The notes under the pieces were generated by a model. That model saw nothing but the letters and a program-made list of their open reading frames with translations, was not told the DNA's origin and made no database searches. Shown here in pieces: positions 22,479 through 57,514 of a stretch of DNA of 64,000 nucleotides. Origin of the DNA: Minisyncoccota bacterium (lineage in GTDB: Bacteria; Patescibacteriota; Minisyncoccia; Phycocordibacterales; UBA9973); assembly GCA_017991395.1 (NCBI GenBank), contig JAGOQQ010000001.1, positions 33,864-97,863 of the forward strand, read 5' to 3'. The position numbers and the translations under genes were made by a program. Numbering within the stretch: the stretch's first letter is position 1; the number at the start of each line of letters is the position of its first letter.

Positions 22479-22587
22479 GTGTTGGCGACAACCTACTTTC
22501 GCCCGAAGACTATCATCGGCTCAGTAAGGCTTAACTTCTCTGTTCGGAATGGAAAGAGGTGTTTCCCTTACGATAGATCACCAACAC
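22479..22587 (-). rRNA. rrf: 5S rRNA
   Basis: Reverse complement reads GTGTTGGTGATCTATCGTAAGGGAAACACC...CCGAACAGAGAAGTTAAGCC...GAAAGTAGGTTGTCGCCAACAC. It has the conserved CCGAAC/GAAGT and AGTAGG blocks and the helix I pairing. Confidence 0.85.
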
Positions 22588-22692
22588 TAAATGTTCGATT
22601 TTATATGTGCACACAATTCAAAAATTTTTTCAAACTCGACGAAGCGATTTCTCGCCCCGTCTTAGTGAGTTCCCGCGAACTAAGTTCGGGGT

Positions 22693-22715
22693 CACCAACA
22701 CTAAATGTTCGATTT
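22693..22715. repeat. 23-nt direct duplicate of the 5S 5'-end junction
   Basis: caccaacactaaatgttcgattt occurs at 22579-22601 (spanning the 5S 5' end) and again at 22693-22715. Confidence 0.6.
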
Positions 22716-22805
22716 AGTGATTGTTTAGTTCATCATTTAAGCACTCAAGTATAAAGGGGACTCTAAAATCCGTTCCCCATTCCACACATTTCTCCTACAC
22801 ATTCG

Positions 22806-22895
22806 TGATCTCGACGGGATTCAAACCCGCGACCTCAGAACCAGCTCCTGGCAATCTACTGGTGCTACGCTCTAATCAGACTGAGCTACGAGACC
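22806..22895 (-). tRNA. tRNA-like gene between 23S and 5S with canonical acceptor, D and T arms but no canonical anticodon arm; about 14 nt extra. Possibly intron-containing or a pseudo-tRNA
   Basis: RC reads GGTCTCG TA GCTC AGTCTGATTA GAGC ... GCGGG TTTGAAT CCCGT CGAGATC A. No 5/7/5 stem-loop can be found between the D and T arms. The only local pairing there is ACCAG/CTGGT around a 14-nt loop. Confidence 0.45.
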
Positions 22896-23575
22896 GTACT
22901 CAGGAAACGGGCGATATGGACGGTGTCCTACGACCTGATATGTTGACCTGCTCAACTCGATCTAGTCTATACCCTTTTGTATTCCATCGTTAAATGGGCC
23001 TACTTAAGTCTGAGGGATACCCCCAATAATCCGTACTCGAACAGCTTCATACTGTTGCGCAACCAGCATTAGTGCTGATTCACGGCTATAAGACACGTCA
23101 AGTATGTTGCGTATGCTTGGAAACCAAGTATACATTAACAACACGACAACACTTTTGGTTTTACTTCCATGTTTGGGTTCATTCCATTAGTGACGCTTCC
23201 TGAATGTTTTTAATTTTTGCAAAATGTACTATTTATACTTGAATGCTTAAATAGTTGTTGTCATAATAGTGATTTTCAAAGTTCCTAATAGGAATCGAAA
23301 CATTAGTACGCCTCGGCTGAGTACATTACTGTACGTACACCTAGCGCCTATCGACGTGATCATCTCTCACGCTTCTTAAACGATTCCTAATCTTGAAGGT
23401 GGCTTCCCTCTTAGATGCTTTCAGAGGTTATCCATTCCCGACATAGCTACCCTGCATTGCTTTTGGCAAAACAGCAGGTACACCAGAGGTCAGTTCACCC
23501 CGGTCCTCTCGTACTAGGGGCAAGTCTTCTCAAGAATCAACGCCTGCAGTAGATAGGAGACCAACCTGTCTCACG

Positions 23576-24038
23576 CACCTACTTGCCCCACATAGCTTTT
23601 TGAAAAAAGCGACGTGGGGCCATACTCATATATCGACGAAGAGATATGAGTATGTTTTTCTCGTATTACTACGAGGATTGGACTGTAACTTCATCTCTTT
23701 CAAGATGTTTGACATTCAGTCTCTACGGGTCACAGTCATTATAAAATGACATAGTTCCCTCGGTATTGCCCCATCCGCGATTTTCCGCGTTTAATCCGCG
23801 AACTTCTGCGTTTGTCGGGTTCCACCGATATAAGTCAACTTCTCATACACTATTTCTAATGTATGCCGCCGTGAAATGTACTTACTGTACATTCATGGTC
23901 TTGTCTCTGTAAACATAAGTATTTTTACAAATACTTCCCTCAACGGATTCAAACTGCCCAATGCGTAGAACCTTATTCGTAGAGCGCAGAGCGTCGATCA
24001 AGATGCAATTGCATTTTGAATCAAACGTTTTACGTTCC
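23576..24038 (-). other. ~463-nt insertion in 23S domain V at the GAACGU|CGUGAGACAG junction (E. coli ~2593-2596 region); candidate ORF-less group I intron
   Basis: Exon-like TTAGAACGT (ends in U) lies upstream. The insert ends ...TAGGTG (terminal G) directly before CGTGAGACAGG. There is no ORF >=60 aa on the rRNA strand inside it. Confidence 0.5.
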
Positions 24039-24734
24039 ACGTTCTAAGATCTACGACCTGAACGGTTTGAACCCAGCTCGCGTACCTTTTTAAATGGCGA
24101 ACAGCCATACCCTTGGTAGCTTCTCCACCACCAGGATAAGGTGAGCCGACATCGAGGTGCCGAACTCCGCCGTCGATATGAACTCTTAGGCGGAACTAGC
24201 CTGTTATCCCTAGAGTAGCTTCTATCCGTTAATCTTCGACCGCATCTAATGCGAATCGTCGGTTCACTAGGTTCTGCTTTCGCACCTGCTTGGGATGTAC
24301 CCCTCACAGTCAAGCCAGCTTGTGCCCTTACACTATCGGCACGGTTTCCATTCGCGCCTAGCTGACCTTAATAAACCCCTCCGTTACTCTTTAGGAGGGT
24401 ACCGCCCCAGTAAAACTACCTTCCAGAAACTGTCTCTCTCCGTTTTTGCCGTAGAGATTAGAATATGCCCATTAAAAGAGTGGTATTTCACTGACGAGTA
24501 TTACATCACCGAGATGATGCACATAACCTCTCCCACCTATGCTACGCATTTAATAAACATACTCAATATCAAGATGTAGTAAAGCTTCTAGGGTCTTTTC
24601 GTCTAACTGCAGGTAACCGGCATCTTCACCGGTATTGTATTTTCACCGAGCAGGTCCCCGAGACAGTTTCCCAGTCATTACACCATTCGTGCGCGTCGGA
24701 ACTTACCCGACAAGGTACTTCGCTCTTCTGTACC

Positions 24735-24942
24735 TAAAAGAAGGACTCTATCTTCATCCATTTCATAAAGAAATTAGGATGTATGGCGCTGGTCTCTCGA
24801 TAGCCATATTTGGACTTGCTATGCATTACTGCACAACAAGGTAGCTTTTTGTTTGGTATAACTTCATCACACTTTTGATCAATTGTTTATCTTTTTCTAT
24901 GACGGTCCCAGTCCTTCACTACACTTCAATGAAATGTAGTGA
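24735..24942 (-). other. ~208-nt insertion in the 23S between CCUAAGGU and AGCGAAGUACCUUGUCGGGUAAGUUCCGAC (E. coli ~1931 site)
   Basis: The universally contiguous CCTAAGGT|AGCGAAATTCC is interrupted. The insert contains a hairpin tcactacatttcattgaagtgtagtga. No ORF. Confidence 0.5.
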
Positions 24943-24977
<35 letters not shown>

Positions 24978-25914
24978 CAGGGCTTATATCAGCCAGCTCA
25001 TGTCTTGCGACAATCACCACCGATATTTGACCTTCTGGCATTGGTCAGGTGTCACCCCCTATACATCCTCTTACGAGTTCGCAGGGAGCTGTGTTTTTGA
25101 TAAACAGTTGCCAGGAATACTTTCGCTGCGGCCACGCACATCACGCAGAGCACGATGTGCAAGCTAAAAGTTAAAAAGTTTAAAGCTAAAAGAAGAGAAA
25201 TGCATTTTGTATTTCCTTTCAGCTTTTGACTTTAAGCTTTCAGCTTATTGCCATCACATTCTATGTGATGTGCGCGGCAAGCCTTATCCCAAAGTTACGG
25301 CTGCTTTTTTGCCGAGTTCCTTGGGGACCTCTCACTCGTTCGCCTTGGTCTACTCGACCTGACTACCTGTGTCGGTTTACGGTACGGGTTCTCACATATT
25401 AGAGCTTAGAAGCTTTTCTTGGAAGCGTGCTTTATATCATCCCCATGGGCGTACCCACAGATTTATGCTCTGCTTGCATGTGTCTTGCGACTGCTTCCGG
25501 ATTTTCCTGGAAGCCACACTCACAGCACAAACTCAAATCCATTAATGAGCGATATATACTACACTCCGTCCCTCCATCGCATACGTGAGAAGTTAAGGAA
25601 TATTAACCTTATGTCCATCGGGTGCGGTTTTCACCATTCCCTTAGGCCCGACTAACCCTTGGCTGATTATCATAGCCAAGGAAACCTTAGTCTTTCGGCG
25701 GGAGGGGATCTCACCCTCCTTGCGGTTACTTGTGCCAACATTCTTACTTCTCATCACTCCAGAGTGGGTCACCCCTTCTCCTTCACTGCGGATGAGAACA
25801 CTTGCCTACCACTGCACTTGTCCGAAGACAAATACAATCCTCAAATTCGGTATCACGTTTAGCCCCGATTATTTTCGGCGCGAAATCTCTTGATGAGTGA
25901 GCTGTTACGCTTTC

Positions 25915-25946
<32 letters not shown>

Positions 25947-26530
25947 TCATTGTCAGAGAAATATCACATCCTTGATTTGCACTTAACGTGAATTTAGGGA
26001 CCTTATTTAGAGATCTGGGCTGTTTCCCTTTTGACATATGGAGCTTAGCCCCCATTGTCTAACTGCTAAGTTATGACTCTTGGTATTCGGAGTTTGATAG
26101 ATTTCGCGAGATTGCTCCCTGTCGAGATCTTCCAGTGCTCTACCCCCAAGAGGAACACTTAACGCTAGCCCTAAAGCTATTTCGGCAAGAACCAGCTATT
26201 ACCAGGTTCGATTAGCTTTTCACTCCGACCCACGCGTCATCCGAAAGTATTGAACGGCTTATCGGTTCGGTCCTCCATCTGTCTTTCGACAAACTTCAAC
26301 CTGCACATGGGTAGCTCACCTGGCTTCGGGTCTTATGCATACTACCAATTACGCGCTATTAACACTTGGTTTCCCTGGGGCTCCGTTGCGTAGCAACTTA
26401 GCCGAGCAGCATGCATAAACTCGTTGGCTCATTCTTCAATAGGCACGCCATGACGGAACACGATAAATCGCGTCCGCTCTGACTCCTTGTAAGCATATGG
26501 TTTCAGGTCTATTTCACTGTCCTTCCGGAC

Positions 26531-26571
<41 letters not shown>

Positions 26572-27545
26572 ATTCAAAAATATTTAGCCTTGCCAGTTAG
26601 TTCTGGCAGATTCCTCCAAGCTATTCGTGTCTTAGAGTACTCAAGAGCAGTAACGAAAGAGATATAATTATTTAAGTTACAGGACTATCACCTTCTTTGG
26701 TCGTGCTTTCCAGCACCTTCACATATAATTATATTTTTTGACTCTTCTCGTAAAACGAAGTTACTGTCTTACAACCCCTCACAGTAATATCCGAAGATAT
26801 TTCGTAAGGTTTGGGCTTCTCCGGTTTCGCTCGCCGCTACTCACGGAATTCATATTTGTTTCTTTTCCTCCAGGTACTGAGATGTTTCACTTCCCTGGGT
26901 ATGCATCTACACGTCAAGCGCATAGATTATCTCGAATAACCGAGATAGAGTTTCCTCATTCAGAAATTTCCGGATCAAAGGTTGTTAGGCACCTCCCCGA
27001 AACTTATCGCAGCCACACCACGTCTTTCATCGCTTTTTGAATCCTAGGCATCCACCATATGCTCTTAATTTCCTATTAGGAAATTTAAAAACCACTAAGT
27101 ATAGATATTTCTGCATATATCTATACGACAACATCACCGTACTTCAAACCGCTTCGAAGTACAGTGAACTCTGTTTTCAATACACAAAAAGAAAAGACCC
27201 TTAACTGTGTGTATCGAAACAGGATGAACTTTTCAAACAACCAGCCTTTCTGTCGTGAACTAAAAAACCGCCTGTTGGCGGTAAAAGAAAACCCCAAAGG
27301 ATTAACCTTTACGCCAACGAAGTGATTTTTTATTACTTACCATATCGTGAGAAAGAGTATATATGAAAGCAAAACCAAAGTCAAGTGATTTTTGCCTTGC
27401 AGAACAAGGCTTTTTCCCCTATTCCATACAAGCCTTATATTGCTTAATTTTAAAGGGAAAATGAGATTTTTTTGGGTTAAATTTTTTGATTATTTTTAGG
27501 TATTTTTATAGCTTTTTCCATCTTTAGAATTTTATTTTTCTTATC

Positions 27546-45641: not shown

Positions 45642-46436
45642 TTAATTTTTTACAAACCTCACTGCCCCGCCTTGGGACCTGATGAGATACATTCCAGGTG
45701 AAAAATCTCTTACTGGTACACCATTCTCTGGCATACCTCCTCTGTACACAAGTTTGCCATCCATTGAGACTATCTGAACTTCTCTGCCGACAAGCGCTGG
45801 TGCATACAGCACATCACTTGAAGGATTTGGAAACACGACAATATTCTCAGGTGTTGGAGCCGGATTAAACACTGAAGCACAGGTTGTGATTTGAACTATC
45901 TCCAGTGGAGACTTTGCAGTGTCTCCTGGTAGATACAAATCAACTCCGTATGCGTATCTAACGCACGGACTCCATACTCCGAAGTCAGTCAGCAAAGAGT
46001 CGTCTGTGTTGTAAATCGGCATACCGGTCGTATAGTACAACCAGTTTCCTGAATTAGTGTCCAATGCATCGCAAATTTTTATGGATGCAAATGCGACGGG
46101 ATTGTTCCCAGTGTTTAATGCAAAATACCGCTTGAATCTCCAATTTGGATATGGTACTGGAGAATTGTCATTGATGACATCGAACGTGTCTCCAATGGCA
46201 AAAGTGCTCATTGTTCCCAAAGTTTTTGGAATAAATTTTGAATTCACCATGGCTTTGTCTTTTAACTCAACCATGATTTCAAGAGGCATCACGTGCCGAC
46301 TTTCTATCGAACGATCATTTCTGGTTCGTTCAATTACACATACCTTTTCTTTCATATCAACTGTGATTTTTACCACAGTGGCATTTGCAAAGAGTACCAA
46401 TAGTACTCCCAGCACACTAAGTAAGATTTTTTTCAT
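45642..46436 (-). CDS. Secreted protein with a C-terminal domain resembling the T9SS (Por) sorting tail
   Basis: Signal peptide MKKILLSVLGVLLVLFANA. C-terminus IVVFPNPSSDVLYAPALVGREVQIVSMDGKLVYRGGMPENGVPVRDFSPGMYLIRSQGGAVRFVKN is similar to the Por_Secre_tail pattern (from memory). Confidence 0.5.
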   Translation of the reverse strand: MKKILLSVLGVLLVLFANATVVKITVDMKEKVCVIERTRNDRSIESRHVMPLEIMVELKDKAMVNSKFIPKTLGTMSTFAIGDTFDVINDNSPVPYPNWRFKRYFALNTGNNPVAFASIKICDALDTNSGNWLYYTTGMPIYNTDDSLLTDFGVWSPCVRYAYGVDLYLPGDTAKSPLEIVQITTCASVFNPAPTPENIVVFPNPSSDVLYAPALVGREVQIVSMDGKLVYRGGMPENGVPVRDFSPGMYLIRSQGGAVRFVKN

Positions 46437-46551
46437 GATGTAAATGTCCTTTTTTTGTTTAAGCCCATCATACCACAGTAATGATAATTTGTAAAGGAGC
46501 CTGCTGTGTATAAGTGTCCACTTAGCATTTTATGAAAAAAGACCCGAAAAA

Positions 46552-46938
46552 TCAGGTCTTTTGCCCTTCCAAGGCATACATTTCAATTATCCTCTTTACA
46601 CAGTGGACAACGAAAAACGCAATTGAGCTCACTGCATATAATGACAAGAATATTACTCTATGGGTTATCTCAAATGCACTCATTGCACACAAACCAAGAC
46701 ATAAAAGAACAAGTGTAACGACCGAGAAAAGTGTGTACACTTTCTCAATTCGTGCAAATTGCCCACACACATTCCAAACCCCAAGTACGAGTGCATCCGC
46801 CAGCAAAATAGTAGTATGTGTTTTTTGGTGAAATTCTCCACCCAAGACAACATATGTCATATATACAATCAATATCAGTACAGGTGCATGAGTCATTAGA
46901 ATCATGCACCACGGAATACTCATTTTGATGTATCTCAT
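46552..46938 (-). CDS. Small polytopic membrane protein
   Basis: 128-aa ORF with 4 TM segments. Confidence 0.4.
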   Translation of the reverse strand: MRYIKMSIPWCMILMTHAPVLILIVYMTYVVLGGEFHQKTHTTILLADALVLGVWNVCGQFARIEKVYTLFSVVTLVLLCLGLCAMSAFEITHRVIFLSLYAVSSIAFFVVHCVKRIIEMYALEGQKT

Positions 46939-46943
46939 ACTAC

Positions 46944-47429
46944 TTATTGCTCTGGGAATCGGTGAGGTAATCGTGCGAGCGTAGATACATAGCCTTCATC
47001 GAGGGTCGTAATCTTGAACTGTACAAAATACTTCTCGGAACTAAATTTTGGATCCTTGAAGAAGAGATGAAACTGTACAGCATTTTCAAACTGATTAACC
47101 TCAACGGTCTTCTGTGCTACAACATTCATATCCTTGTCTAGAATTTCAAGTAGTGTCATAGCCGACACCAAGCATCTTTTCTTTTTTGAAGACAATTCAA
47201 AATGATAGCTTAACTTAATTGAATCTTTGACAAACTCGAATGTGGGACCCATCGGATATTCTACGATTTTCATCGATGAATCAATGCACGTCTCTTTTGT
47301 ATAGAGCTTATACGGTACATTTTCTCCTCTGGTCAAATAATCGATCTTGATTACTTTGTCTTTTGGCGGGACTTGTCCAAGACAAATACTGACCACAAGA
47401 CACATGCATACTGCAAGGATTTTTTTCAT
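46944..47429 (-). CDS. Secreted/lipoprotein-like hypothetical
   Basis: Signal peptide with lipobox-like MKKILAVCMCLVVSICLG. Confidence 0.45.
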   Translation of the reverse strand: MKKILAVCMCLVVSICLGQVPPKDKVIKIDYLTRGENVPYKLYTKETCIDSSMKIVEYPMGPTFEFVKDSIKLSYHFELSSKKKRCLVSAMTLLEILDKDMNVVAQKTVEVNQFENAVQFHLFFKDPKFSSEKYFVQFKITTLDEGYVSTLARLPHRFPEQ

Positions 47430-47512: not shown

Positions 47513-47556
47513 AAATTCAAAAGAGCGGCGCCCTTGGGCGCCGCTCTTTTGAATTT
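47513..47556. terminator. Long palindromic terminator (20-bp stem) abutting the fusA stop; paralog of 36478-36524
   Basis: aaattcaaaagagcggcgcc cttg ggcgccgctcttttgaattt. Confidence 0.65.
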
Positions 47557-49706
47557 TATTTTCGTGTTTTCACGATTTCGTCTGTCACATTTTGTGGCAC
47601 AACATCATATCGTACGAATTCCATAGTGAATCCTGCACGCCCTTCTGTCATAGATCGTAGGTTTGTCATGTATCCGAACATTTCAGAAAGTGGCACAACT
47701 GCACGCACCACCTTGTTCATTCCTCGGTCTTCCATACCATCGATAAGTCCACGCTTTGATGAAAGTGACCCAGTCACGTCTCCCATAAATTTTTCTGGAG
47801 TAATCACTTCTACCTTCATCATAGGTTCGAGAATCACAGGCCGAGCAAGTTTTGCTGCGTCTTGAACAGCCATTGATGATGCGATTTTGAACGCCATTTC
47901 GTTTGAGTCCACATCGTGGTAACTTCCGTCATAAAGTTCAACTTGTACATCCACCATCTTAAATCCTGCCACCACACCTCGATCAAGTCCTTCTTTAAAT
48001 CCTTTTTCACATGCAGGAATGTATTCGTTTGGAATCACACCTCCCTTAATGTTGTTAACGAATTCAAAGTGATCATCACGCTTCACATTTTTTGGAAGAT
48101 CATCAATATCTTCTTTAGACATAGTCATATCCATTGGCTTCACACGAATACGTACGTGTCCGTAGTTTCCACGTCCTCCAGACTGCTTGATGTACTTTCC
48201 TTCTACTTCTGCATTTCCTGTAATAGTTTCTCGGTATGCTACTTGTGGCTTACCAACGTTTGTTTCCACAGAAAATTCTCGCTTCATTCGGTCCACGATA
48301 ATTTCAAGGTGAAGTTCTCCCATACCTGCGATGATTGTCTCACCTGTTTCTTGGTCAGTAGACACACGGAATGTTGGGTCTTCTTGTGCGAGACGATTGA
48401 GCGCCATACCCATTTTTTCTTGGTCTGCTTTTGTCTTTGGTTCAACACGAAGCGAGATAACTGGTTCTGGGAACACGATTCGGTTGAGCTCTACAGGATT
48501 TGCTTCATCACAAAGTGTGTCTGAAGTAATAGTATCTTTGAGTCCCACCGCAGCGGCGATTTCTCCCGCAAATACTTTCTTCACTTCTTCACGATCGTTT
48601 GCGTGCATTCGCAAGATTCGTCCGATTCGTTCTTTGTTTCGAGTTCGTGGATTGTATACATAACTTCCTGCTTCAAGTGAACCTGAGTACACACGGAAGA
48701 AAATAATTTGTCCTACGAATGGATCTGTCGCAACCTTAAACGCGAGCGCAGAAAAAGGTTCATTGTCAGATGCTTTTCGTTCAACATGTTCATCGTTGTC
48801 TGGATTGATACCTTGAATTGGAGGAATGTCTGTTGGTGCTGGAAGATAGTCTACCACTGCATCAAGTACGAGCTGAACACCTTTGTTTTTGAGCGCACTT
48901 CCTGCAAACACTGGGAAAATTTCGTTTGCAATAACTCCCTTTCGAAGAAGTTTTTTGAGAGTATCAATATCTGGAATTTTTCCTTCGAAGTATTCGTTCA
49001 AGATTTTGTCATCTTGCTCAACGATTTTTTCGATAAGTTCACCGTGGAACTTTTCTGCATCAGCTTTGTACGCTTCAGGGATTTCTTTTTCAACAACCTT
49101 ATTTCCCATTTCACCTTCAAAGTAGTATGCCTTCATCCGAAGAAGGTCAATCACTCCTTCGTGATTTTCTTCAAGACCAATTGGAATTTGTACACGAATC
49201 GCTTTTTTTGAGAGACGATCTAAAATAGTGGCATATGAACGTTCAAATGACGCACCAGTTCGATCGAGTTTGTTGATAAAACAAATACGTGGCACATTTG
49301 CTTCGTCAGCATAACGCCAGTTTGTTTCTGATTGTGGTTCTACTCCAGCCACACCATCAAACACCACCACTGCTCCGTCGAGTACTCGAAGTGAACGCTT
49401 CACTTCTACAGTAAAGTCGATGTGCCCTGGTGTGTCGATAATGTTGAATCGGTGTTTTTTGTTTTTGTCCGCAAGGTCATATGTCGGTGTCCAAAAACAA
49501 GTTACCGCAGCCGATGTGATAGTAATACCACGTTCGCGCTCTTGCTCCATCCAGTCTGTTGTTGTCTCACCATCGTGCACTTCACCGATTTTGTGTGACA
49601 CGCCCGTATAATAAAGCACGCGTTCTGTGGTCGTAGTCTTACCCGCATCAATGTGGGCAATGATTCCGAAATTTCTTACTTTCTCCAATGGATAATCTCT
49701 TTGCAT
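47556..49706 (-). CDS. fusA: Elongation factor G
   Basis: [35 protein letters not shown]..., 716 aa, all EF-G domains. The ORF-track start at 49778 is an upstream over-extension. Confidence 0.95.
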
Positions 49707-49904
49707 GTGTGTGTAATACTTGAATACTAACTCGAGAATGAGTACCGCATTCAAAATGATAATTGTGTGCCTAGACAAATGCCTAAAACATCACTCTAAT
49801 AATTAAAAAAAGCGTTCGATTTGAACGCTCCTAGTATACGACATTTGAAAGATTTTATCAAATAAAAAAACCCACACAATGTGCGGGTTCAAGAAGCATA
49901 AGAA

Positions 49905-50456
49905 TTAAGATTTCACAGGTTTTAATTTGCAAAGTTTTTTATAAGTTGAGACAAGTTGAAGTTTTACTCCTTTTTCTGTTTCAATTAAATCTCCACACAA
50001 TAAACGATGTTTTAATTTTTCAAAAGCTCTCTCTGGTTCTTTGCCCTCTGATACCAGATGAACGACATCGAATGGTTCACCAAAAAAATACAGAGAAGCT
50101 TCGAAAGTCCATTTATTCTGAGAGTAAGATGGACTATTTCGCTTACATATTACTTCGAGTTTGAAATTGTTTTGCAAAAAAAATTTCTCATAATCTTCAA
50201 AATCCAATCCATCACTACGATTAACGTCAGAGTATCCATCAACATAGAATTGAAGCAAGTATTTCTTTTCGTATGCGTGAACTAATTTCGGACAAGATTC
50301 TGCGTGTGAATAATCATAGCCACCACCAGAATGCATAATTTTATAATTACCAATAATGCCTTTCGGTCCAGGGTTTGCACGAAATTTTCTTTCATAAGGA
50401 ATTAGTTTGATTGCATTCTTTTTCCCACACAATGGGCAATCTTTAGATTTTTCCAT
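49905..50456 (-). CDS. Hypothetical protein (CxxC-containing), first gene of a cassette inserted between fusA and rpsG
   Basis: MEKSKDCPLCGKKNAIKL.... No recognised family. Confidence 0.4.
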   Translation of the reverse strand: MEKSKDCPLCGKKNAIKLIPYERKFRANPGPKGIIGNYKIMHSGGGYDYSHAESCPKLVHAYEKKYLLQFYVDGYSDVNRSDGLDFEDYEKFFLQNNFKLEVICKRNSPSYSQNKWTFEASLYFFGEPFDVVHLVSEGKEPERAFEKLKHRLLCGDLIETEKGVKLQLVSTYKKLCKLKPVKS

Positions 50457-50779
50457 TATCTTTTGTTTTTAGTTTTGCTTACACTTGCAGTTTTTTTAGA
50501 TTTCGGCGCATTTTTGGTAATTTCAGTTTCCAAAATAGGCTTAAGTTCAAAAGTATATTCAGTACTTTTTACTTTGTTCTTTTGTCGGATTTTTTTGGTT
50601 ATGGTATACGCAGACAATGGTACAGCAAAAGTTACCCAGTAGAATGTGTAGATATCTCCTGTCAAAAGCCTCTGTCGACTCGAAGAACCCAAAAAAATTG
50701 ATCCCTCAGGGATCAGTATTCCCGTTTCATCGTTAAATCTATGGATACGATATCCTTTTAATTCTTTCTTTCTAATCAT
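50456..50779 (-). CDS. Hypothetical small protein, translationally coupled to the 49905 gene (start/stop overlap)
   Basis: 107 aa with one TM (YTFYWVTFAVPLSAY). Stop overlaps the next gene's start. Confidence 0.4.
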   Translation of the reverse strand: MIRKKELKGYRIHRFNDETGILIPEGSIFLGSSSRQRLLTGDIYTFYWVTFAVPLSAYTITKKIRQKNKVKSTEYTFELKPILETEITKNAPKSKKTASVSKTKNKR

Positions 50780-50796
50780 GATATTTATTTTTTAGT

Positions 50797-50846
50797 GTTA
50801 TTTACCCTAAAACTACTCTTTTTGGAAAATTTGTCAAACAAAAAAA
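50797..50846 (-). promoter_or_regulatory. Repeated ~45-nt upstream element, copy 1 (promoter-like TTGACA...), in front of the 50456..50779 gene
   Basis: Minus-sense tttttgtttgacaaattttccaaaaagagtagttttagggtaaa(taac); 45-nt match to 51681-51725. Confidence 0.4.
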
Positions 50847-50852
50847 CCTGAC

Positions 50853-51660
50853 TCACGTCAGGTTTTTATAAATTGAGAGCATTTCCGATTTAAGGTTTTT
50901 TCGATTTACCTTCTTGTTATCAATCTTGTAATGGTCTTCTAGCAAAAACCATGCCTTCCATCTTCTTAAAAAAATTTTTTGATCTTCTGGAAGAAAACTA
51001 TCATTGAATACTAAAAGTTGCTTTATGAAATAATCCATCGCAGATCGGCGAGCATCCCACACTTTTGTTTTACTACCAGAGAAGGATTTTGCATATACTT
51101 CATCAAGCGAATCCATAATCACATTACGTAGTTTTTTTCTGAAATCTTCCGTGACAAGTTCAAAGCCCAAAGTTATGACAATTAAAGTCTTGGCATTTGT
51201 GGATACAATGAATGCATCGTCACCATCATGTCTTGAAAAATTTCCTGAGAATATCTCTACAAAAATATTTGAAAAAATTCCAAGAAAAACTTCATCCATA
51301 AATTCTTTCTTGTCTATATTGTGACCAGGAATTACAGCTACACTATAATCATGATATTCTCTCTTTATCAGAATATTCTCCAAATCTGAAAGAATTCTTT
51401 TGATATACCGCTGTGGAAAATGGAAATCATCTCTTGGTACAAGACTCCTAAAATCTGGATCTTTCTTGCTCAAAAGTTTTAAAATACCTGTGATGACTAA
51501 AAAGGAAACTTGATCATCCTCCACACTTTCTTCTAAGATCTTATTGAGGCTTTTGATGTCTTCGTTTAAGGTTGCTCCAACAACTCGAACAGCTATTTCA
51601 GCCTTTTTTTGAACATCAAGAAGTCCTCCTCCTGATTTCTGAATTACTTTCTTTCCCATT
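50853..51660 (-). CDS. Hypothetical protein (~269 aa)
   Basis: Likely start is MGKKVIQKSGGGLLDVQKK... at 51660. The ORF-track N-terminal extension covers the repeated upstream element. Confidence 0.45.
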
Positions 51661-51680
51661 ATGTTTTTGTTTTTAGTTTT

Positions 51681-51725
51681 GTTTACCCTAAAACTACTCT
51701 TTTCTGAAATTTTGTCAAACAAAAA
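51681..51725 (-). promoter_or_regulatory. Repeated ~45-nt upstream element, copy 2, in front of the 50853..51660 gene
   Basis: gtttaccctaaaactactcttttctgaaattttgtcaaacaaaaa (plus strand). Confidence 0.4.
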
Positions 51726-51964
51726 TACCCTACCATTATATGGCAGGGTATTGTAATACTTATTACTAAACAATACTATTATTTTCCAAAGGAGGAGGTG
51801 GAAGATCTTTATTTCTCTCTTCTTCTTCCTTTTTTTCTTCCACTGAAAGTTCTCTTGTTGGTGTATTTACGTCAAGATACACTTCTTGTGGTGGTGCTGG
51901 AAGTTTGTTTTCTTCTGATTGTGATGGGAATTGTTCCATAGTCTTATTTTTGTATTATTATAAT

Positions 51965-52265
51965 ACAAAATATTATATCATACAAAAAACACCTTTCGGT
52001 GTTTTTTCTAATAGATTTATTACCAAGCAAAATGTGGGACACATTTCTGGGATAGATTTTGAATTGGGAGATCCAAAATCATATCAAGAAATGCATGCTC
52101 CATTTTGCACTGGTAAAAAGAAAACCGCTTTCGCGGTTGTTCTTTGTTACCAAGCAAAATGGTTGTGTTTTAACAGTTTTTATATATAAAAACTAAAAAA
52201 CACATGCTCCATTTTGCACTGATATAAAAAAATCCCTTTCGGGATTTTTTTCTACCAAGCAAAAT
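51965..52265. repeat. Three tandem ~110-nt modules downstream of rpsG. Each has a copy of the rpsG 3' end (cattttgcttggta, minus sense) plus a distinct rho-independent terminator hairpin
   Basis: ccaagcaaaatg recurs at ~52022, ~52148 and ~52254. catgctccattttgcactg occurs twice. Hairpins: aaaaaacacctttcggtgtttttt, aaaaccgctttcgcggtt, aaaaaaatccctttcgggattttttt. Confidence 0.7.
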
Positions 52266-52722
52266 GGGCAAATGCTTTGTTTGATTCTGCCATTTTGTGG
52301 GTGTCGTCTCGTTTTTTTACAGAAGCTCCTTCACCTTTTGATGCTGCGATGAGTTCATCTGCAAGCTTTACTGCCATTGGCTTTCCTTTTCCACTTCGAG
52401 CTGCTCCGACAATCCATCGTGTCGCGAGTGCGAGTCGTCGTTCTGGTCGAACTTCTCGAGGAACCTGATAGTTTGCACCACCGATTCGTCGTGAACGTAC
52501 TTCCATCACTGGAGATGCGTTTTTGATAGCGAGGTCAAAGATTTCAAGCGGGTTTGGATTTGCTGTCTTTTCTTTGATGATATCAAACGCGCCATAGACC
52601 ACCTTTGAGGCAGCAGTCTTTTTTCCGTCCCACATAACATTGTTAATAAACTTCTGAAGTCTTTCAGAGTTATACAATGGGTCTGGGCCCGGCATATTTC
52701 GATTTTTTACTTTTCTTCGCAT
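52252..52722 (-). CDS. rpsG: 30S ribosomal protein S7
   Basis: MRRKVKNRNMPGPDPLYNSERLQKFINNVMWDGKKTAAS...KAFAHFAW. Confidence 0.9.
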   Translation of the reverse strand: MRRKVKNRNMPGPDPLYNSERLQKFINNVMWDGKKTAASKVVYGAFDIIKEKTANPNPLEIFDLAIKNASPVMEVRSRRIGGANYQVPREVRPERRLALATRWIVGAARSGKGKPMAVKLADELIAASKGEGASVKKRDDTHKMAESNKAFAHFAW

Positions 52723-53356: not shown

Positions 53357-56300
53357 TTACCGGAGGGTAACCTTTTCTCGAATAAGCCCATTTTTCACTT
53401 CAATAGATGGAGTTGTGTGTACTTTTGTATATGTCTCATCAGCGTTTTTCTTCTCAATGGTCACATAGTAATTGCCATTTTGAATAAGACAGAAGTATTT
53501 TCCGAGTTCATTTGTCACCTTGTGCGCGACTTCAGTATCAGATCCAGACGTAAATATTCTCAATATCGCAAATGGCACCGGTACACCATCGAGTGTTTTG
53601 ACACTTCCAAATGCCTTGCGTGATACTCCTGTTTCGCGAACAACCATGAAAAATACGTAAGTTCCAAAAATGAAAATATTATAAAACGTTGGTCCAGTCA
53701 AAAGTGCAATGACTGAGAAGAAAAATCCAAGTCCAAAAAAAGCATCTGATATCCGCGCAATGACCAAATCTTTCTTTGAGAAAAATTTCATGAGCTTCTG
53801 ATCTCGTTTTGCAAATTCATTCCAATCAAATCCAATTGGATCCATCGGAATATTTCGAATCAACACATCACCCTGTGACTTCACTTCAATCTCTGTTCCA
53901 TAATACAAATCAAGATACAATTCATCCCGAGTCTTCCCTGCAAGTTTAATCGAAGGAAATTGATAGTGCGTTTTTTTAGCAACCATTCTATATGAACCTG
54001 GTGGCACGAGGAATCCATATCGCCCATCCATGTCGGTAATAGAAGTAGCGACTTCCTTCCCTTGCACATCATAAAGAGCCACAATCACCGGATCAAGTGG
54101 TTGCTTTGTCACAGAATCATACACAGTTCCCCAAGGACGATTTCGTTTCTTCAGTCCAAATGCATTCAATATCAATGTCCAAATTCGATATGGAATAAAC
54201 ACCACTTCAGTAAATGAAAATGGATTCAAAAAGAGTACTGGTGCCACACTAAACACTGCTCCCATCACAAGACCGACCACGGCAATAATCTGCGCGAGAG
54301 GATTTAAGTTTGGAGCATTCAAAATACGATCAACTTGATCATATGTGTCTTCAGTTATATCTTGAACTATACAAAAAGTATGAATGACTTCATTTTGTAT
54401 TACTTGAAAGACTGTAGCATTTGCGGGTAAATCTACATCACATCTATCCACTTCACCGAGCACATTTGGTCCATCATTTGGATTTTCATCTCCCGGCAAT
54501 TCTGGCTCATCTGGGACTACAGGATTATCTGGATTGTTGGGATCATCCGTAATTGGACCACCATTATAATTTGGATCAGGAAGTACCTCCTCTGTTGGCG
54601 TATCATCATCTGGCAAAACTGGCGTAAGTGTATTTACCTCACTTTGATCAAATGGAGAAATACATCCACTGTCACCACCAGAACCAGGTGCAAAATCAAT
54701 GTTTCCGTCGCCATCATTGTCGACACCATCACTACACACAGGCAACACAGTCTCGACATTATACTCATTATTATCAAATGGAGTTTGGCATCCCGGATCA
54801 GACATATCTACCAATCCATCACCGTCATCGTCTCCAGCATTATTACATTGAAAGGGTGAGTTGTTTTGCCCATTTGATTCATCATTGTCTCCATACGACT
54901 CACAGCCCGTATCACTTGGATAATCAGTAAATCCATCACCATCATTGTCCGCATTGTCTGCACACTGGTGTGGTGTTGAACCACTTCCTCCCCCGCTACT
55001 TCCTTGGCTTATTACGATTGAGAAAGATTTTGTATCAGAATAAAATTCTCCCGGACTTACCGCATCCACGGCACGCATTTCAAATGTATATGTCCCTGCG
55101 GTCGTCGGAGTACCTGTAAGATCAGTCCCTGAAAATGAAAGTCCTGTCGGCAAACTTCCCGAAACAAGTTCAAGTGACACAGTTCCCTGAGAATTTGAAA
55201 TAGTAAAAGACTGCGAATATGAATCACCCACTGTGTGAGCAGAATCAATAGAAGACGTGGTGAATGTCGGCATTTCATACACAGATACTCGAGAATTTCC
55301 GGCATCTGCGACGTAGAGTCTGCGTGTGCCTGATTCAAAAAATATTCCTTCTGGTTGGTGAAATCCGTCTTCTTCAGTGGTGTCAGTCGATGCCACAAAT
55401 GTAGTTTGACCGATCACACCAATGGCATCTTCTCCATCTGTAATTTCCGCGACATCAAACACCATGACACGATCGGCAATTTCATCTGTTACAAAAAGTG
55501 AATGAGAATCTTGATCGTATGCAAGAGCGCGCGATGTAGCAAAATCACTCTGACTCGTAGCATTGTCATCAGTAGTAAAATCAGTTGCACCAAGTACATG
55601 GATTGCATTTTCACCACTTACGATTGTTGCTATATCAAACACTAAAATTCGACTATCATTGTCTGTCACAAAAAGTCTATCGCCTTCTCTGTCGAGCGCA
55701 ATCCCTGTCGGACTCATAAGTGATGCTTGATCCACTTCCAAATCAGCAGAGTCAAAATCAGTTTGTCCGAGCTCGTATACTGCAGGCTCACCATCTATTA
55801 TTGTCGCTACATCAAACACCATCACGCGATGGTCCGCTGAATCTGCAACATATAAAAGTTGTGTATCTTCATCTATGGCAAGGCCTACTTCTGGTGTGGT
55901 GAGTGCGTCTTGAGCTGGCCCAAAACCTGGCGTTACAAAATCCGGAGCACCGAGTACGTATATCGCATTCTCACCTGTTGTCACAGTAGCCACGTCGTAG
56001 ACAACGACGCGAGAATTCGATGAATCCGTGACAAATAGGCGATTTGTTGTCGCATCAAATGCCACTGAGTGAGGTATTGCAAGTCCTGATTGAGTGGTCG
56101 CAGCGGAAATGGTAAGAAAATCTGCTTGCCCGAGCACATAATCAGGCATTTCATCAACAAGCTCATTCGAAGAATTCAAATCAAACACCAACACACGATT
56201 GTGCTCTGGATCTGCTGCAAAAAGACGGTGATTTACAGTATCGATTGCAATATCATGAGCTTCGTCAAAAGTATAGATAGCAAAATTTGATGCACTTCCA

Positions 56301-57514
56301 AGTGTAAAATCCATTTCTCCATCACCATCCAAATGTCCGAGCCCGTCTACGGCATTTTCACCGTCTGTGATTGCAGTAACATCAAAAATCATCACGCGAT
56401 TATTGGTCGAGTCAGCAACGTACAATGTATCGTCATCATAGACATACAATCCACGTGGCGCGCTGAGTCCAGTTTGAGAGGTCGTTGCTGTTGCAGTAAC
56501 AAAATCGGACTGTCCGAGAACTGCCACCGCGTTTTCGCCGTCCGTGATTGCAGTTACATCAAATTTCAACACACGATTGTTTGACGTGTCGGTTGTATAC
56601 AAATATGCACCTGCACTACTATCACCCCACACAGCGTTTGGCTGGTTACAGCCTGATTGAGTTGTGGCAGTGAGAGCGCTATTTGCATCTACCTGGCACA
56701 ATACATTTGCCGAAGCTTCACCATCAGTAAGTACAGTGAGGTCATATGAAAGTATACGGTGATTTTTGGTGTCTGCGACAAACAATCGCGGTGATACTTT
56801 GTTCTCAAAAAACACACCCCGAGGAAATTTAAGGGTGGTAGATGAAGTTCCAGATGTTCCTGGATTTCCGAGATGATTTACATACAATTCTCCATTTGTA
56901 ATTGCAGAAACATCAAACACACTGATTCGGTGATTCGCAGAATCGGCAACAAACAGCCGATCACCGGTGTCATCAAAAAATAATTGATATGGTGCGTTCA
57001 TGCTTGCTGAGTTCCCCCCAGCACCTGCAGTGTTAAAATCACCCTGTCCGAGGACATTTGAAGCAATTTCAAAGTCTGTCACAGTACTTACATCAAACAC
57101 CATCACGCGATTGTTGCCGGTATCAGAGACAAAAAGTCGTAATCCTGTCTGGTCAAGCGCAAGGTGTGTGGGTGAAGAAAAAGTCCGGTGCGAAGTACTA
57201 CTTGTGATCTCATCAAAGTCTGTCTGACCAAGTACATTGTCTGCAATTCTATCGATGAGCTCATTGTTTACATCCAGATTAAATACAAGGACACGATGAT
57301 GTGCATTGTCTGAGACAAAAAGTCGGTGATTGACGGTATCCATCACCATGTCATACGCATTTACTACTTCATCATTAGTGTTGTACAAATGATCTACAAA
57401 TGTATTTTCTGGCTGAAAATTTCCCCCCGCACTAAAAACCGCACTAGGTGGAAGCACCATGAGCAACAACATGAACACAATAGTAGGTTTTTTAAAAAAA
57501 CGAAAAAACTGCAT
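53357..57514 (-). CDS. Giant (1385 aa) cell-surface protein. Signal peptide, multiple NHL-repeat beta-propellers, Asp/Cys-rich Ca-binding-like repeats, and a C-terminal membrane region with two CarboxypepD_reg-like domains
   Basis: NHL motifs (NHRVLVFDL, NNRVMVFDV, YVADSTNNRVMIFDV, many more). CADNADNDGDGFTDYPSDTGC / CNNAGDDDGDGLVDMSDPGC / CSDGVDNDGDGNIDF repeats. PWGTVYDSVTKQPLDPVIVALYDVQGKEVATSITDMDGRYGF, flanked by TM helices. Confidence 0.75.
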   Translation of the reverse strand: MQFFRFFKKPTIVFMLLLMVLPPSAVFSAGGNFQPENTFVDHLYNTNDEVVNAYDMVMDTVNHRLFVSDNAHHRVLVFNLDVNNELIDRIADNVLGQTDFDEITSSTSHRTFSSPTHLALDQTGLRLFVSDTGNNRVMVFDVSTVTDFEIASNVLGQGDFNTAGAGGNSASMNAPYQLFFDDTGDRLFVADSANHRISVFDVSAITNGELYVNHLGNPGTSGTSSTTLKFPRGVFFENKVSPRLFVADTKNHRILSYDLTVLTDGEASANVLCQVDANSALTATTQSGCNQPNAVWGDSSAGAYLYTTDTSNNRVLKFDVTAITDGENAVAVLGQSDFVTATATTSQTGLSAPRGLYVYDDDTLYVADSTNNRVMIFDVTAITDGENAVDGLGHLDGDGEMDFTLGSASNFAIYTFDEAHDIAIDTVNHRLFAADPEHNRVLVFDLNSSNELVDEMPDYVLGQADFLTISAATTQSGLAIPHSVAFDATTNRLFVTDSSNSRVVVYDVATVTTGENAIYVLGAPDFVTPGFGPAQDALTTPEVGLAIDEDTQLLYVADSADHRVMVFDVATIIDGEPAVYELGQTDFDSADLEVDQASLMSPTGIALDREGDRLFVTDNDSRILVFDIATIVSGENAIHVLGATDFTTDDNATSQSDFATSRALAYDQDSHSLFVTDEIADRVMVFDVAEITDGEDAIGVIGQTTFVASTDTTEEDGFHQPEGIFFESGTRRLYVADAGNSRVSVYEMPTFTTSSIDSAHTVGDSYSQSFTISNSQGTVSLELVSGSLPTGLSFSGTDLTGTPTTAGTYTFEMRAVDAVSPGEFYSDTKSFSIVISQGSSGGGSGSTPHQCADNADNDGDGFTDYPSDTGCESYGDNDESNGQNNSPFQCNNAGDDDGDGLVDMSDPGCQTPFDNNEYNVETVLPVCSDGVDNDGDGNIDFAPGSGGDSGCISPFDQSEVNTLTPVLPDDDTPTEEVLPDPNYNGGPITDDPNNPDNPVVPDEPELPGDENPNDGPNVLGEVDRCDVDLPANATVFQVIQNEVIHTFCIVQDITEDTYDQVDRILNAPNLNPLAQIIAVVGLVMGAVFSVAPVLFLNPFSFTEVVFIPYRIWTLILNAFGLKKRNRPWGTVYDSVTKQPLDPVIVALYDVQGKEVATSITDMDGRYGFLVPPGSYRMVAKKTHYQFPSIKLAGKTRDELYLDLYYGTEIEVKSQGDVLIRNIPMDPIGFDWNEFAKRDQKLMKFFSKKDLVIARISDAFFGLGFFFSVIALLTGPTFYNIFIFGTYVFFMVVRETGVSRKAFGSVKTLDGVPVPFAILRIFTSGSDTEVAHKVTNELGKYFCLIQNGNYYVTIEKKNADETYTKVHTTPSIEVKNGLIREKVTLR

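Follow-up and report, generated by a model that had tools for sequence, protein, structure and literature searches.

The str cluster on contig JAGOQQ010000001.1 of a Minisyncoccota bacterium, a groundwater organism with a small genome that belongs to the Paceibacteria (Candidatus Pacebacteria) of the Candidate Phyla Radiation (CPR), holds an island of small genes between rpsG and fusA, and this island is our subject. By the window we mean the whole stretch of DNA that was analysed, 64 kb in length; coordinates are window positions, and all features of the island lie on the minus strand. The upstream border is rpsG (ribosomal protein S7, 156 amino acids (aa), 52252-52722), an open reading frame (ORF) whose identical counterparts in the loci L003 and L099 match Pfam Ribosomal_S7, with rpsL (53269-52850, minus strand) lying upstream of it. 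The downstream border is fusA (elongation factor G (EF-G), 716 aa, 47556-49706, ATG at 49706), and the identical gene in L099 has Pfam EF-G domains. The gap between them measures 2545 nucleotides (nt) and contains four small genes: orf57 (57 aa, rich in proline and glutamate, 51766-51939), which opens the island as its first cassette and appears as a gene call in public assemblies, gene A (50853-51659), gene B (107 aa, 50456-50779) and gene C (49905-50456). A sequence-only reading of this DNA had described three hypothetical genes between rpsG and fusA. The interruption is confirmed, on the minus strand, but a fourth ORF, orf57, had been overlooked, and the protein encoded by gene A, given there as 269 aa, is 268 aa long when read from the ATG at 51659. 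The coupling claimed for B and C takes the form of a one-base overlap, TAATG, between the stop of B and the start of C, and the CxxC motif attributed to the 183-aa product of gene C is found as C7-x2-C10. The GC content of the island is 0.33 compared to approximately 0.40 in its flanks. Since four further independent assemblies (L100-L103) show the identical arrangement, as does the source genome's own contig, an assembly artefact is ruled out.

Strong intrinsic terminators bracket each unit of the island (-12.8 to -18.4 kcal/mol, z -4.8 to -6.0; 0 of 200 shuffles fold equally well), with six between rpsG and the fusA promoter and seven strong hairpins in all. At the upstream border, the last 14 nt of rpsG (CATTTTGCTTGGTA) occur in three copies between 51980 and 52267, and behind every copy stands a strong intrinsic terminator (-12.8 to -13.3 kcal/mol, z -4.8 to -5.3), in agreement with the triple terminator that had been described at the end of rpsG. 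The terminator after orf57 (51724-51752; -18.4 kcal/mol, z -4.9) runs through its T-run into the -35 box of the promoter-like element before gene A; that after gene A (50842-50867; -14.6 kcal/mol, z -6.0) holds the gene A stop codon inside its hairpin and is conserved in L003; and that after gene C (49868-49890; -13.8 kcal/mol, z -4.8) is followed by a promoter-like site for fusA (49833-49861; TTGATA, 17-nt spacer, TATACT), which has 10 of 12 consensus matches. A further terminator-like hairpin (49808-49832; -11.6 kcal/mol, z -4.95) stands at the start of the fusA leader, approximately 100 nt before the fusA ATG. Small hairpins with T-runs like this one are also present in L003 and L001, and the hairpin, which comes directly after the promoter-like site, may be a leader attenuator for EF-G. 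With terminators bracketing the units and a promoter-like site of its own before fusA, the str operon is predicted to be split into five transcription units, namely rpsL-rpsG, orf57, A, B-C and fusA. The units follow a common plan, in which a terminator with a T-run enters a TTGACA -35 box, followed by a weak -10 box and a leader that is very rich in A and lacks a Shine-Dalgarno (SD) sequence, and then by the ORF and the next terminator. An SD sequence precedes only 3 of 50 long ORFs of this genome, and the A content of the island leaders is 0.57-0.67 against a genome mean of 0.37. Rfam returned only sub-threshold matches, all of them on terminator hairpins.

The element that recurs in this plan, which we term P1, is a 65-nt repeat with two copies in the window, 88% identical to each other, and with no occurrence elsewhere in it. 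Its core, the 18-mer GAGTAGTTTTAGGGTAAA, occurs exactly twice in the 64 kb compared to 0.05 expected, and 0 of 100 shuffles reached two. Copy 1 (51729-51665) consists of TTGACA (51718-51713), a 16-nt spacer, TAGTTT (51696-51691) and an A-rich, SD-less leader that continues up to the ATG of gene A; copy 2 (50848-50784; TTGACA at 50837-50832, TAGTTT at 50815-50810) precedes B-C. Each copy starts in the T-run of the preceding terminator, and its leader of about 35 nt, 57-67% A, ends at the ATG. A third copy comprises the leader only (GTGTAAGCAAAACTAAAAACAAAA, 50461-50485). Located within the 3' end of gene B and directly upstream of the gene C ATG, it lacks the promoter hexamers and is 92% identical to copy 1; within it, the 17-mer CAAAACTAAAAACAAAA (50477-50461) is identical to the gene A leader, two matches where 0.09 are expected. 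Thus the two hexamer-bearing copies that the sequence-only reading had placed before A and B stand, whereas their length is 65 nt rather than 45 nt, the spacer is 16 nt and the leader-only copy had escaped notice. Upstream of gene A homologues, P1 is near identical in L003 and retains 84.9% identity in L001. Because the alignable coding sequence of gene A is only 64.9% identical between the window and L001, P1, judged from these identities, is constrained more strongly than gene A itself. Across 1.38 Mb of related loci, the P1 core motif together with the -35 box was found elsewhere only at the first island promoter of L032. The duplicated element had been taken as the mark of a system; instead, we predict that the repeat is the native, conserved promoter and 5' leader of gene A, of which a diverged second copy drives B-C. 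P1 is put forward here as a candidate native strong SD-less promoter and leader for an uncultured lineage. A 7-bp dyad within it (TAGTTTT, 9 nt, AAAACTA) was considered as an operator and dropped, as by inspection it is not conserved in L001 or L032.

The relatives of this genome separate the genes of the island from one another. The closest arrangement is that of L003, where rpsG is 100%, fusA 98.9% and gene A 93% identical and the order is rpsG, a 177-aa gene in place of orf57, A, a DUF6915 gene and fusA. In L001, gene A (49% identical) lies directly before fusA and is preceded, from rpsG onwards, by genes for an RNA-polymerase-alpha-CTD-like protein, a PaaX/Cas2-like protein and a 324-aa protein. 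Gene A is also probably the last gene before fusA in L012, in which the contig ends just after A. Conversely, L006 and L007, which have the same rpsG 3' end and a near-identical fusA start, carry genes for proteins of 129 and 184 aa, PNP_UDP_1, and proteins of 236 and 245 aa, followed by C (66% identical) and fusA, and L010 carries a 146-aa gene, a 189-aa gene on the opposite strand and C (50% identical) between rpsG and fusA. L003 and L001 thus have gene A but neither B nor C, and L006 and L010 have gene C but neither A nor B. As A and C are never found together outside this genome in the recovered contexts, and neither has a constant neighbour, the cassette is not a conserved module.

What the relatives share are the regulatory segments around the genes. 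P1 precedes A in the window, L003 and L001 and B in the window, and it stands at the first island promoter of L032. A second module, P2 (AAAGCATAATCTGAGGGAAACT), precedes the DUF6915 gene in L003 and occurs twice in L006, before the 245-aa gene and before C, and a third, P3, precedes C in L010 and occurs twice in L012, before a 182-aa gene and before A. In three lineages, therefore, unrelated genes share one terminator-promoter-leader module. The downstream terminator and the fusA promoter are common to L010, where they follow C, and L012, where they follow A, so that the same flanked slot is occupied by C in L010 and by A in L012. Homology between the window and L003 likewise covers A, the terminator behind it and the TTGACA that opens the following unit, and is gradually lost near the next start codon, beyond which the window has B-C and L003 has the DUF6915 gene.

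We surveyed 80 species-level loci around rpsG, mapping the junctions by tblastn, and took as a close set the 41 loci with a fusA identity of at least 78%. In this set the rpsL-rpsG gap is short (median 18 nt, maximum 127), and the rpsG-fusA gap has a median of 445 nt and a maximum of 7.4 kb; it is below 100 nt in 13 of the 41 loci, above 400 nt in 21 and above 1 kb in 17. The fusA-tuf gap of the close loci has a median of 2.2 kb (2235 nt in the window) and exceeds 400 nt in 23 of 25. By comparison, all junctions are tight in nine non-CPR loci, with medians of 24 nt for rpsG-fusA and 84 nt for fusA-tuf. The premise that the gene order of the str cluster is nearly inviolable, from which the sequence-only reading had started, accordingly fails in this clade. 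The 27 expanded loci contain 69 gap ORFs, 62 of them on the operon strand, which share only five small clusters, and the GC content of the gap is at or below that of the locus in 25 of the 27. Their Pfam content is mixed: four PaaX/Cas2-like proteins, two Pol-beta nucleotidyltransferases and single cases of subtilase, PNP_UDP_1, DUF6915, histidine phosphatase, response regulator and large surface proteins. No defence systems were recognised among the gap proteins of relatives, for which PADLOC matched only Cas2-like and subtilase models.

We interpret the rpsG-fusA junction of this Paceibacteria clade as a hot spot of accessory-gene turnover, in which orf57, A, B and C are four independent small genes and not one system, and we give this reading a probability of roughly 0.65. 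A published account of aquifer Patescibacteria, which carry many genomic islands with novel sequences, enriched in translation genes (PMC12455944), agrees with the hot-spot picture; our literature searches found no paper describing the rpsG-fusA junction as a hot spot in CPR. Given that unrelated ORFs share both an upstream module and a downstream terminator in relatives, we infer that recombination brings in and exchanges cassettes within these conserved modules, which would double as homology arms and as ready-made expression signals, and which may also shield the inserts from the strong transcription of the translation genes on either side. The leader-only copy inside B suggests that gene C once had a P1 copy of its own, and that the B ORF grew across its decayed remains until it overlapped the C start; such an extension would have given B both its Lys-rich tail and its TAATG coupling to C. 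The self-contained module of the sequence-only reading survives in part, in that the cassette does have its own promoter-like and terminator elements, but a single three-gene system is not supported, as A and C are distributed independently and B is unique. That reading had also proposed a synteny comparison and structure searches. The former finds the genes to be lineage-specific rather than housekeeping, and the latter, with AlphaFold2 and Foldseek on A and C, found no fold relative for A and a low-confidence lead to a double-stranded RNA-binding domain (dsRBD) for C. A bolder version of the hot-spot reading, which we offer as speculation with the odds against it, would make the junction a recombinase-free platform for gene capture and exchange, with P1, P2 and P3 as portable expression adaptors and homology arms, unrelated ORFs exchanged at set positions next to the genes that the cell expresses most strongly, and new genes such as B born over decayed modules.

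None of the four proteins can be assigned to a recognisable family, as the sequence-only reading had found for A, B and C: all four have no family match in Pfam, PHROGs, PADLOC or NCBIfam, with 0 PADLOC families at E <= 1 for orf57, A, B and C and no PHROG match with E < 0.25. No viral relatives of A or C were found in IMG/VR scans or by tblastn against INPHARED, and Pfam detected no recombinase, integrase or transposase, either in the proteins encoded by the island of the window or in 57 gap proteins (>70 aa) of relatives. Until a function is found, we regard the island proteins as ordinary CPR hypotheticals. At the upstream end, inverted partial copies of the rpsG 3' end (CAGTGCAAAATGGAGCATG) lie between the three repeats and could pair with them into long hairpins. 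The duplication of the rpsG end amounts to three copies in the window, two in L003/L004 and none in 81 other related loci; we considered it as a general signature of insertion and rejected it, given its confinement to the window and L003/L004. orf57 itself has an extended -10 box, TGaTATAAT (51980-51972), and a short leader that holds a perfect palindrome, GTATTATAATAATAC (side region 51766-51988). No homologue of orf57 was found in the 95 loci searched, and it is unique to this genome. Our working guess is that orf57 and B are young or marginal genes.

Gene A belongs to a tiny family restricted to Paceibacteria. It has seven homologues among 5.8 billion protein clusters, and a profile search of 1.84 billion representative proteins returned 13 matches, all of one small family; a metagenome scan added one short contig. 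At least three lineages (the window and L003, L001, and L012) have the gene at the rpsG-fusA junction, and the homologue in L005 sits between hisS and ybeY. Its AlphaFold2 model is confident (predicted local distance difference test (pLDDT) 80.7, predicted template modelling score 0.81) and all-alpha, with 11 helices, and as a working guess we take the protein to be soluble and cytoplasmic. Foldseek found no match for this model in the PDB (best E 0.08, template modelling (TM) score <= 0.36) or in BFVD (best E 0.04), and PDB sequence-profile searches with A and C gave nothing relevant. With a confident model that lacks a fold relative, gene A is a reasonable target for structural genomics. Two suggestions for gene A were set aside: that it is a regulator of the RRNPP/Rgg type, as the TM-scores to Rgg2 and Rgg144 are 0.20-0.24 (E 0.27-0.8) and Pfam detects no helix-turn-helix family in it; and that it has a conserved partner, as the metallo-beta-lactamase-fold neighbour in L098 is common to neither L096 nor the window.

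Gene C also belongs to a tiny, Paceibacteria-only family. Four homologues are known to us, and since C7, C10, H51, C55 and C154 are invariant in their alignment, C is probably a zinc-binding protein with a Cys-Cys-His-Cys (CCHC)-type site. In three lineages the gene directly upstream of fusA is a homologue of C, and in L011 a C homologue precedes leuS. The AlphaFold2 model of C is poor (pLDDT 58.8). In this low-confidence model the C-terminal half is predicted as helix 86-95, strands 98-106, 116-124 and 132-138 and helix 141-153, which is the order of a dsRBD, and the top Foldseek matches of the same model are mostly dsRBDs (E 0.04-1); no dsRBD profile of Pfam or NCBIfam matches gene C. A dsRBD-like domain, with possible binding of nucleic acid, is thus a lead only. 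The ratio of nonsynonymous to synonymous substitution rates (dN/dS) is 0.31 for gene A against L003 and 0.24 for gene C against L006, compared to 0.00-0.02 for rpsG and fusA, and by this measure A and C are real genes under purifying selection.

Gene B has no homologue among the 5.8 billion protein clusters, in which it was its own sole match, and it may be a very young gene. It is present in identical copies in five assemblies, the distance between the P1 leader and its ATG equals that in gene A, and it has no clear membrane segment (highest Kyte-Doolittle 19-residue mean 1.07). Its Lys-rich C-terminal tail, the last nine or so codons, is read from the decayed leader copy. Inside the gene, at codons 22-27 (50699-50715, minus strand), lies a perfect 7-bp hairpin with seven T's. 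As an attenuator it was rejected, being insignificant (z -1.1, 25 of 200 shuffles), although one sensitive to translation is conceivable. Nor do B and C resemble a type II toxin-antitoxin pair beyond their overlap: conserved co-occurrence is absent, the neighbours of gene C differ and B has no homologue.

Several points weigh against the hot-spot reading. Module recombination is deduced from a handful of genomes, several of which are short metagenomic contigs, and intragenomic duplication with gene conversion could equally make the modules alike. With the closest relative at only about 87-93% nucleotide identity, gain and loss events are not polarisable. The -10 box of P1, TAGTTT, fits three of six consensus positions, and P1 went unflagged in a promoter consensus scan. 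A promoter common to A and B-C fits co-regulation equally well, and a functional link among the island genes may exist. Taken to its end, this last thought would make A, B and C one co-regulated accessory system inserted as a unit, with A regulating through P1, for example, or as a defence or toxin-antitoxin module. The same promoter and leader before A and B-C, the TAATG overlap of B and C, an operator-like conservation of P1 above that of the gene A coding sequence and the weak full-length Foldseek alignments of A to Rgg-type regulators (E 0.27-0.8) are all consistent with such a system. We nevertheless consider it unlikely, since in the recovered contexts (among which the L012 contig ends just after A) A and C do not occur together outside this genome, B has no homologue at all, and PADLOC, Pfam and NCBIfam are silent. 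The TM-scores to Rgg proteins are only 0.22-0.24 with no helix-turn-helix domain detected, and P1-like modules precede unrelated genes in L032 while other module variants precede A in L012. A narrower doubt, which concerns one part of the island and is compatible with a turnover hot spot, is that gene B is non-functional, its open frame simply spanning the debris of cassettes (one copy of the promoter and leader, a short 5' fragment and the remains of a leader), and that C is the sole real gene of its unit. The lack of any homologue, the last nine or so codons copied from a non-coding leader and the weak terminator-like hairpin at codons 22-27 point this way; however, a 107-codon open frame is improbable at 33% GC (approximately 2.5e-4 per start by our own estimate), the ATG keeps the leader spacing of gene A, the stop exactly overlaps the start of C, the internal hairpin is insignificant (z -1.1, 25 of 200 shuffles) and the copies in five assemblies are identical. 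On balance we doubt that B is debris, less firmly than we doubt a single system.

The tripled rpsG end (doubled in L003) recalls the att-site duplications that arise on integration into the 3' ends of genes, and together with the GC content of 0.33 in the island against 0.40 in the flanks it could be read as the scar of a site-specific mobile element targeting the rpsG 3' end, be it an integrative element, a prophage remnant or an integron-like platform. We think this improbable. The rpsG-end repeats bracket only terminator units of about 110 nt and not genes, the 81 loci without the duplication show the same hot-spot behaviour, and the repeated elements are promoters and terminators with nothing like attC among them. 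Moreover, the Pfam scans of the island and of the 57 gap proteins revealed no integrase, transposase or recombinase, neither IMG/VR nor INPHARED yielded a viral relative of A or C, and the model of A has no match in BFVD. Least probable of all, in our judgement, is that A or C, or both, are lineage-specific translation or RNA factors kept beside translation genes for co-expression. This idea draws on the position of A at rpsG-fusA in at least three lineages and at hisS-ybeY in L005, on that of C upstream of fusA (three lineages) and of leuS (L011), on the dsRBD-like topology of the C-terminal half of C and on the purifying selection acting on both genes. Yet both are missing from most close relatives (L006 has no A and L003 no C), their families are tiny, with 13 and 4 members, the dsRBD match is insignificant and comes from a low-confidence model, and CPR genomes are so dense in translation genes that such proximity is often expected by chance.

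Further observations concern the wider neighbourhood. Only one family recurs in the rpsG-fusA gaps of relatives, a protein some 166 aa long with the PaaX central (Cas2-like) domain, present in four species (L001 4305-4805, L027 10982-11482, L032 11583-12083 and L040 10562-10936) and probably a small regulator. The fusA-tuf junction of the window (45642-47429, minus strand) contains three hypothetical genes of 161, 128 and 264 aa. The 161- and 128-aa proteins have strongly hydrophobic segments and matches in L003 that are 91% and 78% identical, and the C-terminus of the 264-aa protein resembles a type IX secretion system (T9SS) sorting domain; a sorting domain of this type is odd in a CPR bacterium. 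Directly upstream of rpsL lies a gene for a 1385-aa NHL-repeat/beta-propeller protein with a CarboxypepD_reg-like domain (53357-57514, minus strand), conserved in L003. The 23S rRNA gene (22480-27078, minus strand) spans 3795 nt against a model of 2925 nt and contains a group I intron (23659-23922); group I introns in 23S rRNA are a known trait of CPR bacteria. A 90-nt tRNA match of Rfam (22806-22895) was not recognised by ARAGORN, and there is no 16S gene within the window.

The survey corrects an expectation, in that the str cluster is not a fixed block in this CPR clade and both of the junctions of fusA are routinely expanded. With its conserved flanks and reusable modules, the rpsG-fusA island is a compact natural example of accessory-gene turnover in ultra-small genomes, and it could be used to study how genes are acquired and expressed where the machinery of recombination and of mobile elements is minimal.

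Among known arrangements, the nearest in kind are the phage morons, reportedly described by Hendrix and colleagues as autonomous promoter-gene-terminator units between genes that are adjacent in related genomes. Like morons, the units of the island have their own promoter-like site and a strong terminator, with terminator hairpins and T-runs directly downstream of orf57, A and C, and are lower in GC than their flanks; they are co-oriented, they lie between genes that are adjacent in relatives (gaps below 100 nt in 13 of 41) and they differ between close relatives. Unlike morons, they occupy a CPR core operon rather than a phage, without viral homologues having been found, and several of the cassettes share one promoter/leader module. 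As the island lies outside any phage or prophage, membership of the moron class fails on location. A second comparison is with chromosomal hot spots of horizontal gene transfer, or flexible islets flanked by core genes, such as the hypervariable regions of SAR11 and Prochlorococcus. The island shares with these its conserved core flanks, the high turnover of mostly unannotated genes and a biased composition, whereas the rpsG-fusA region is very small (0.4-7 kb), lies inside the str cluster, has nearly all of its genes in one orientation and reuses its modules. Integron cassettes, in turn, are promoterless. As in an integron array, small unrelated ORFs, mostly hypothetical, follow one another on the same strand at a set chromosomal position, and individual slots change occupant from one relative to the next; in contrast, there is no intI, attI or attC, the island cassettes carry their own predicted promoters and terminators, and the sequence repeated at their boundaries consists of terminator hairpins and a promoter/leader, not of a recombination site. 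The resemblance to an integron array is thus superficial. Compared with the canonical str operon, ORF, Pfam and tblastn analyses show that the order and orientation of rpsL, rpsG, fusA and tuf are kept, while two of the three junctions are interrupted, rpsG-fusA by 2545 nt and fusA-tuf by 2235 nt. In our view, the island adds a further case to a class of feature already known, a hot spot of accessory genes in moron-like cassettes, in the unexpected setting of the str cluster of a CPR clade, and the reuse of one promoter/leader module for unrelated genes adds a modestly interesting twist.

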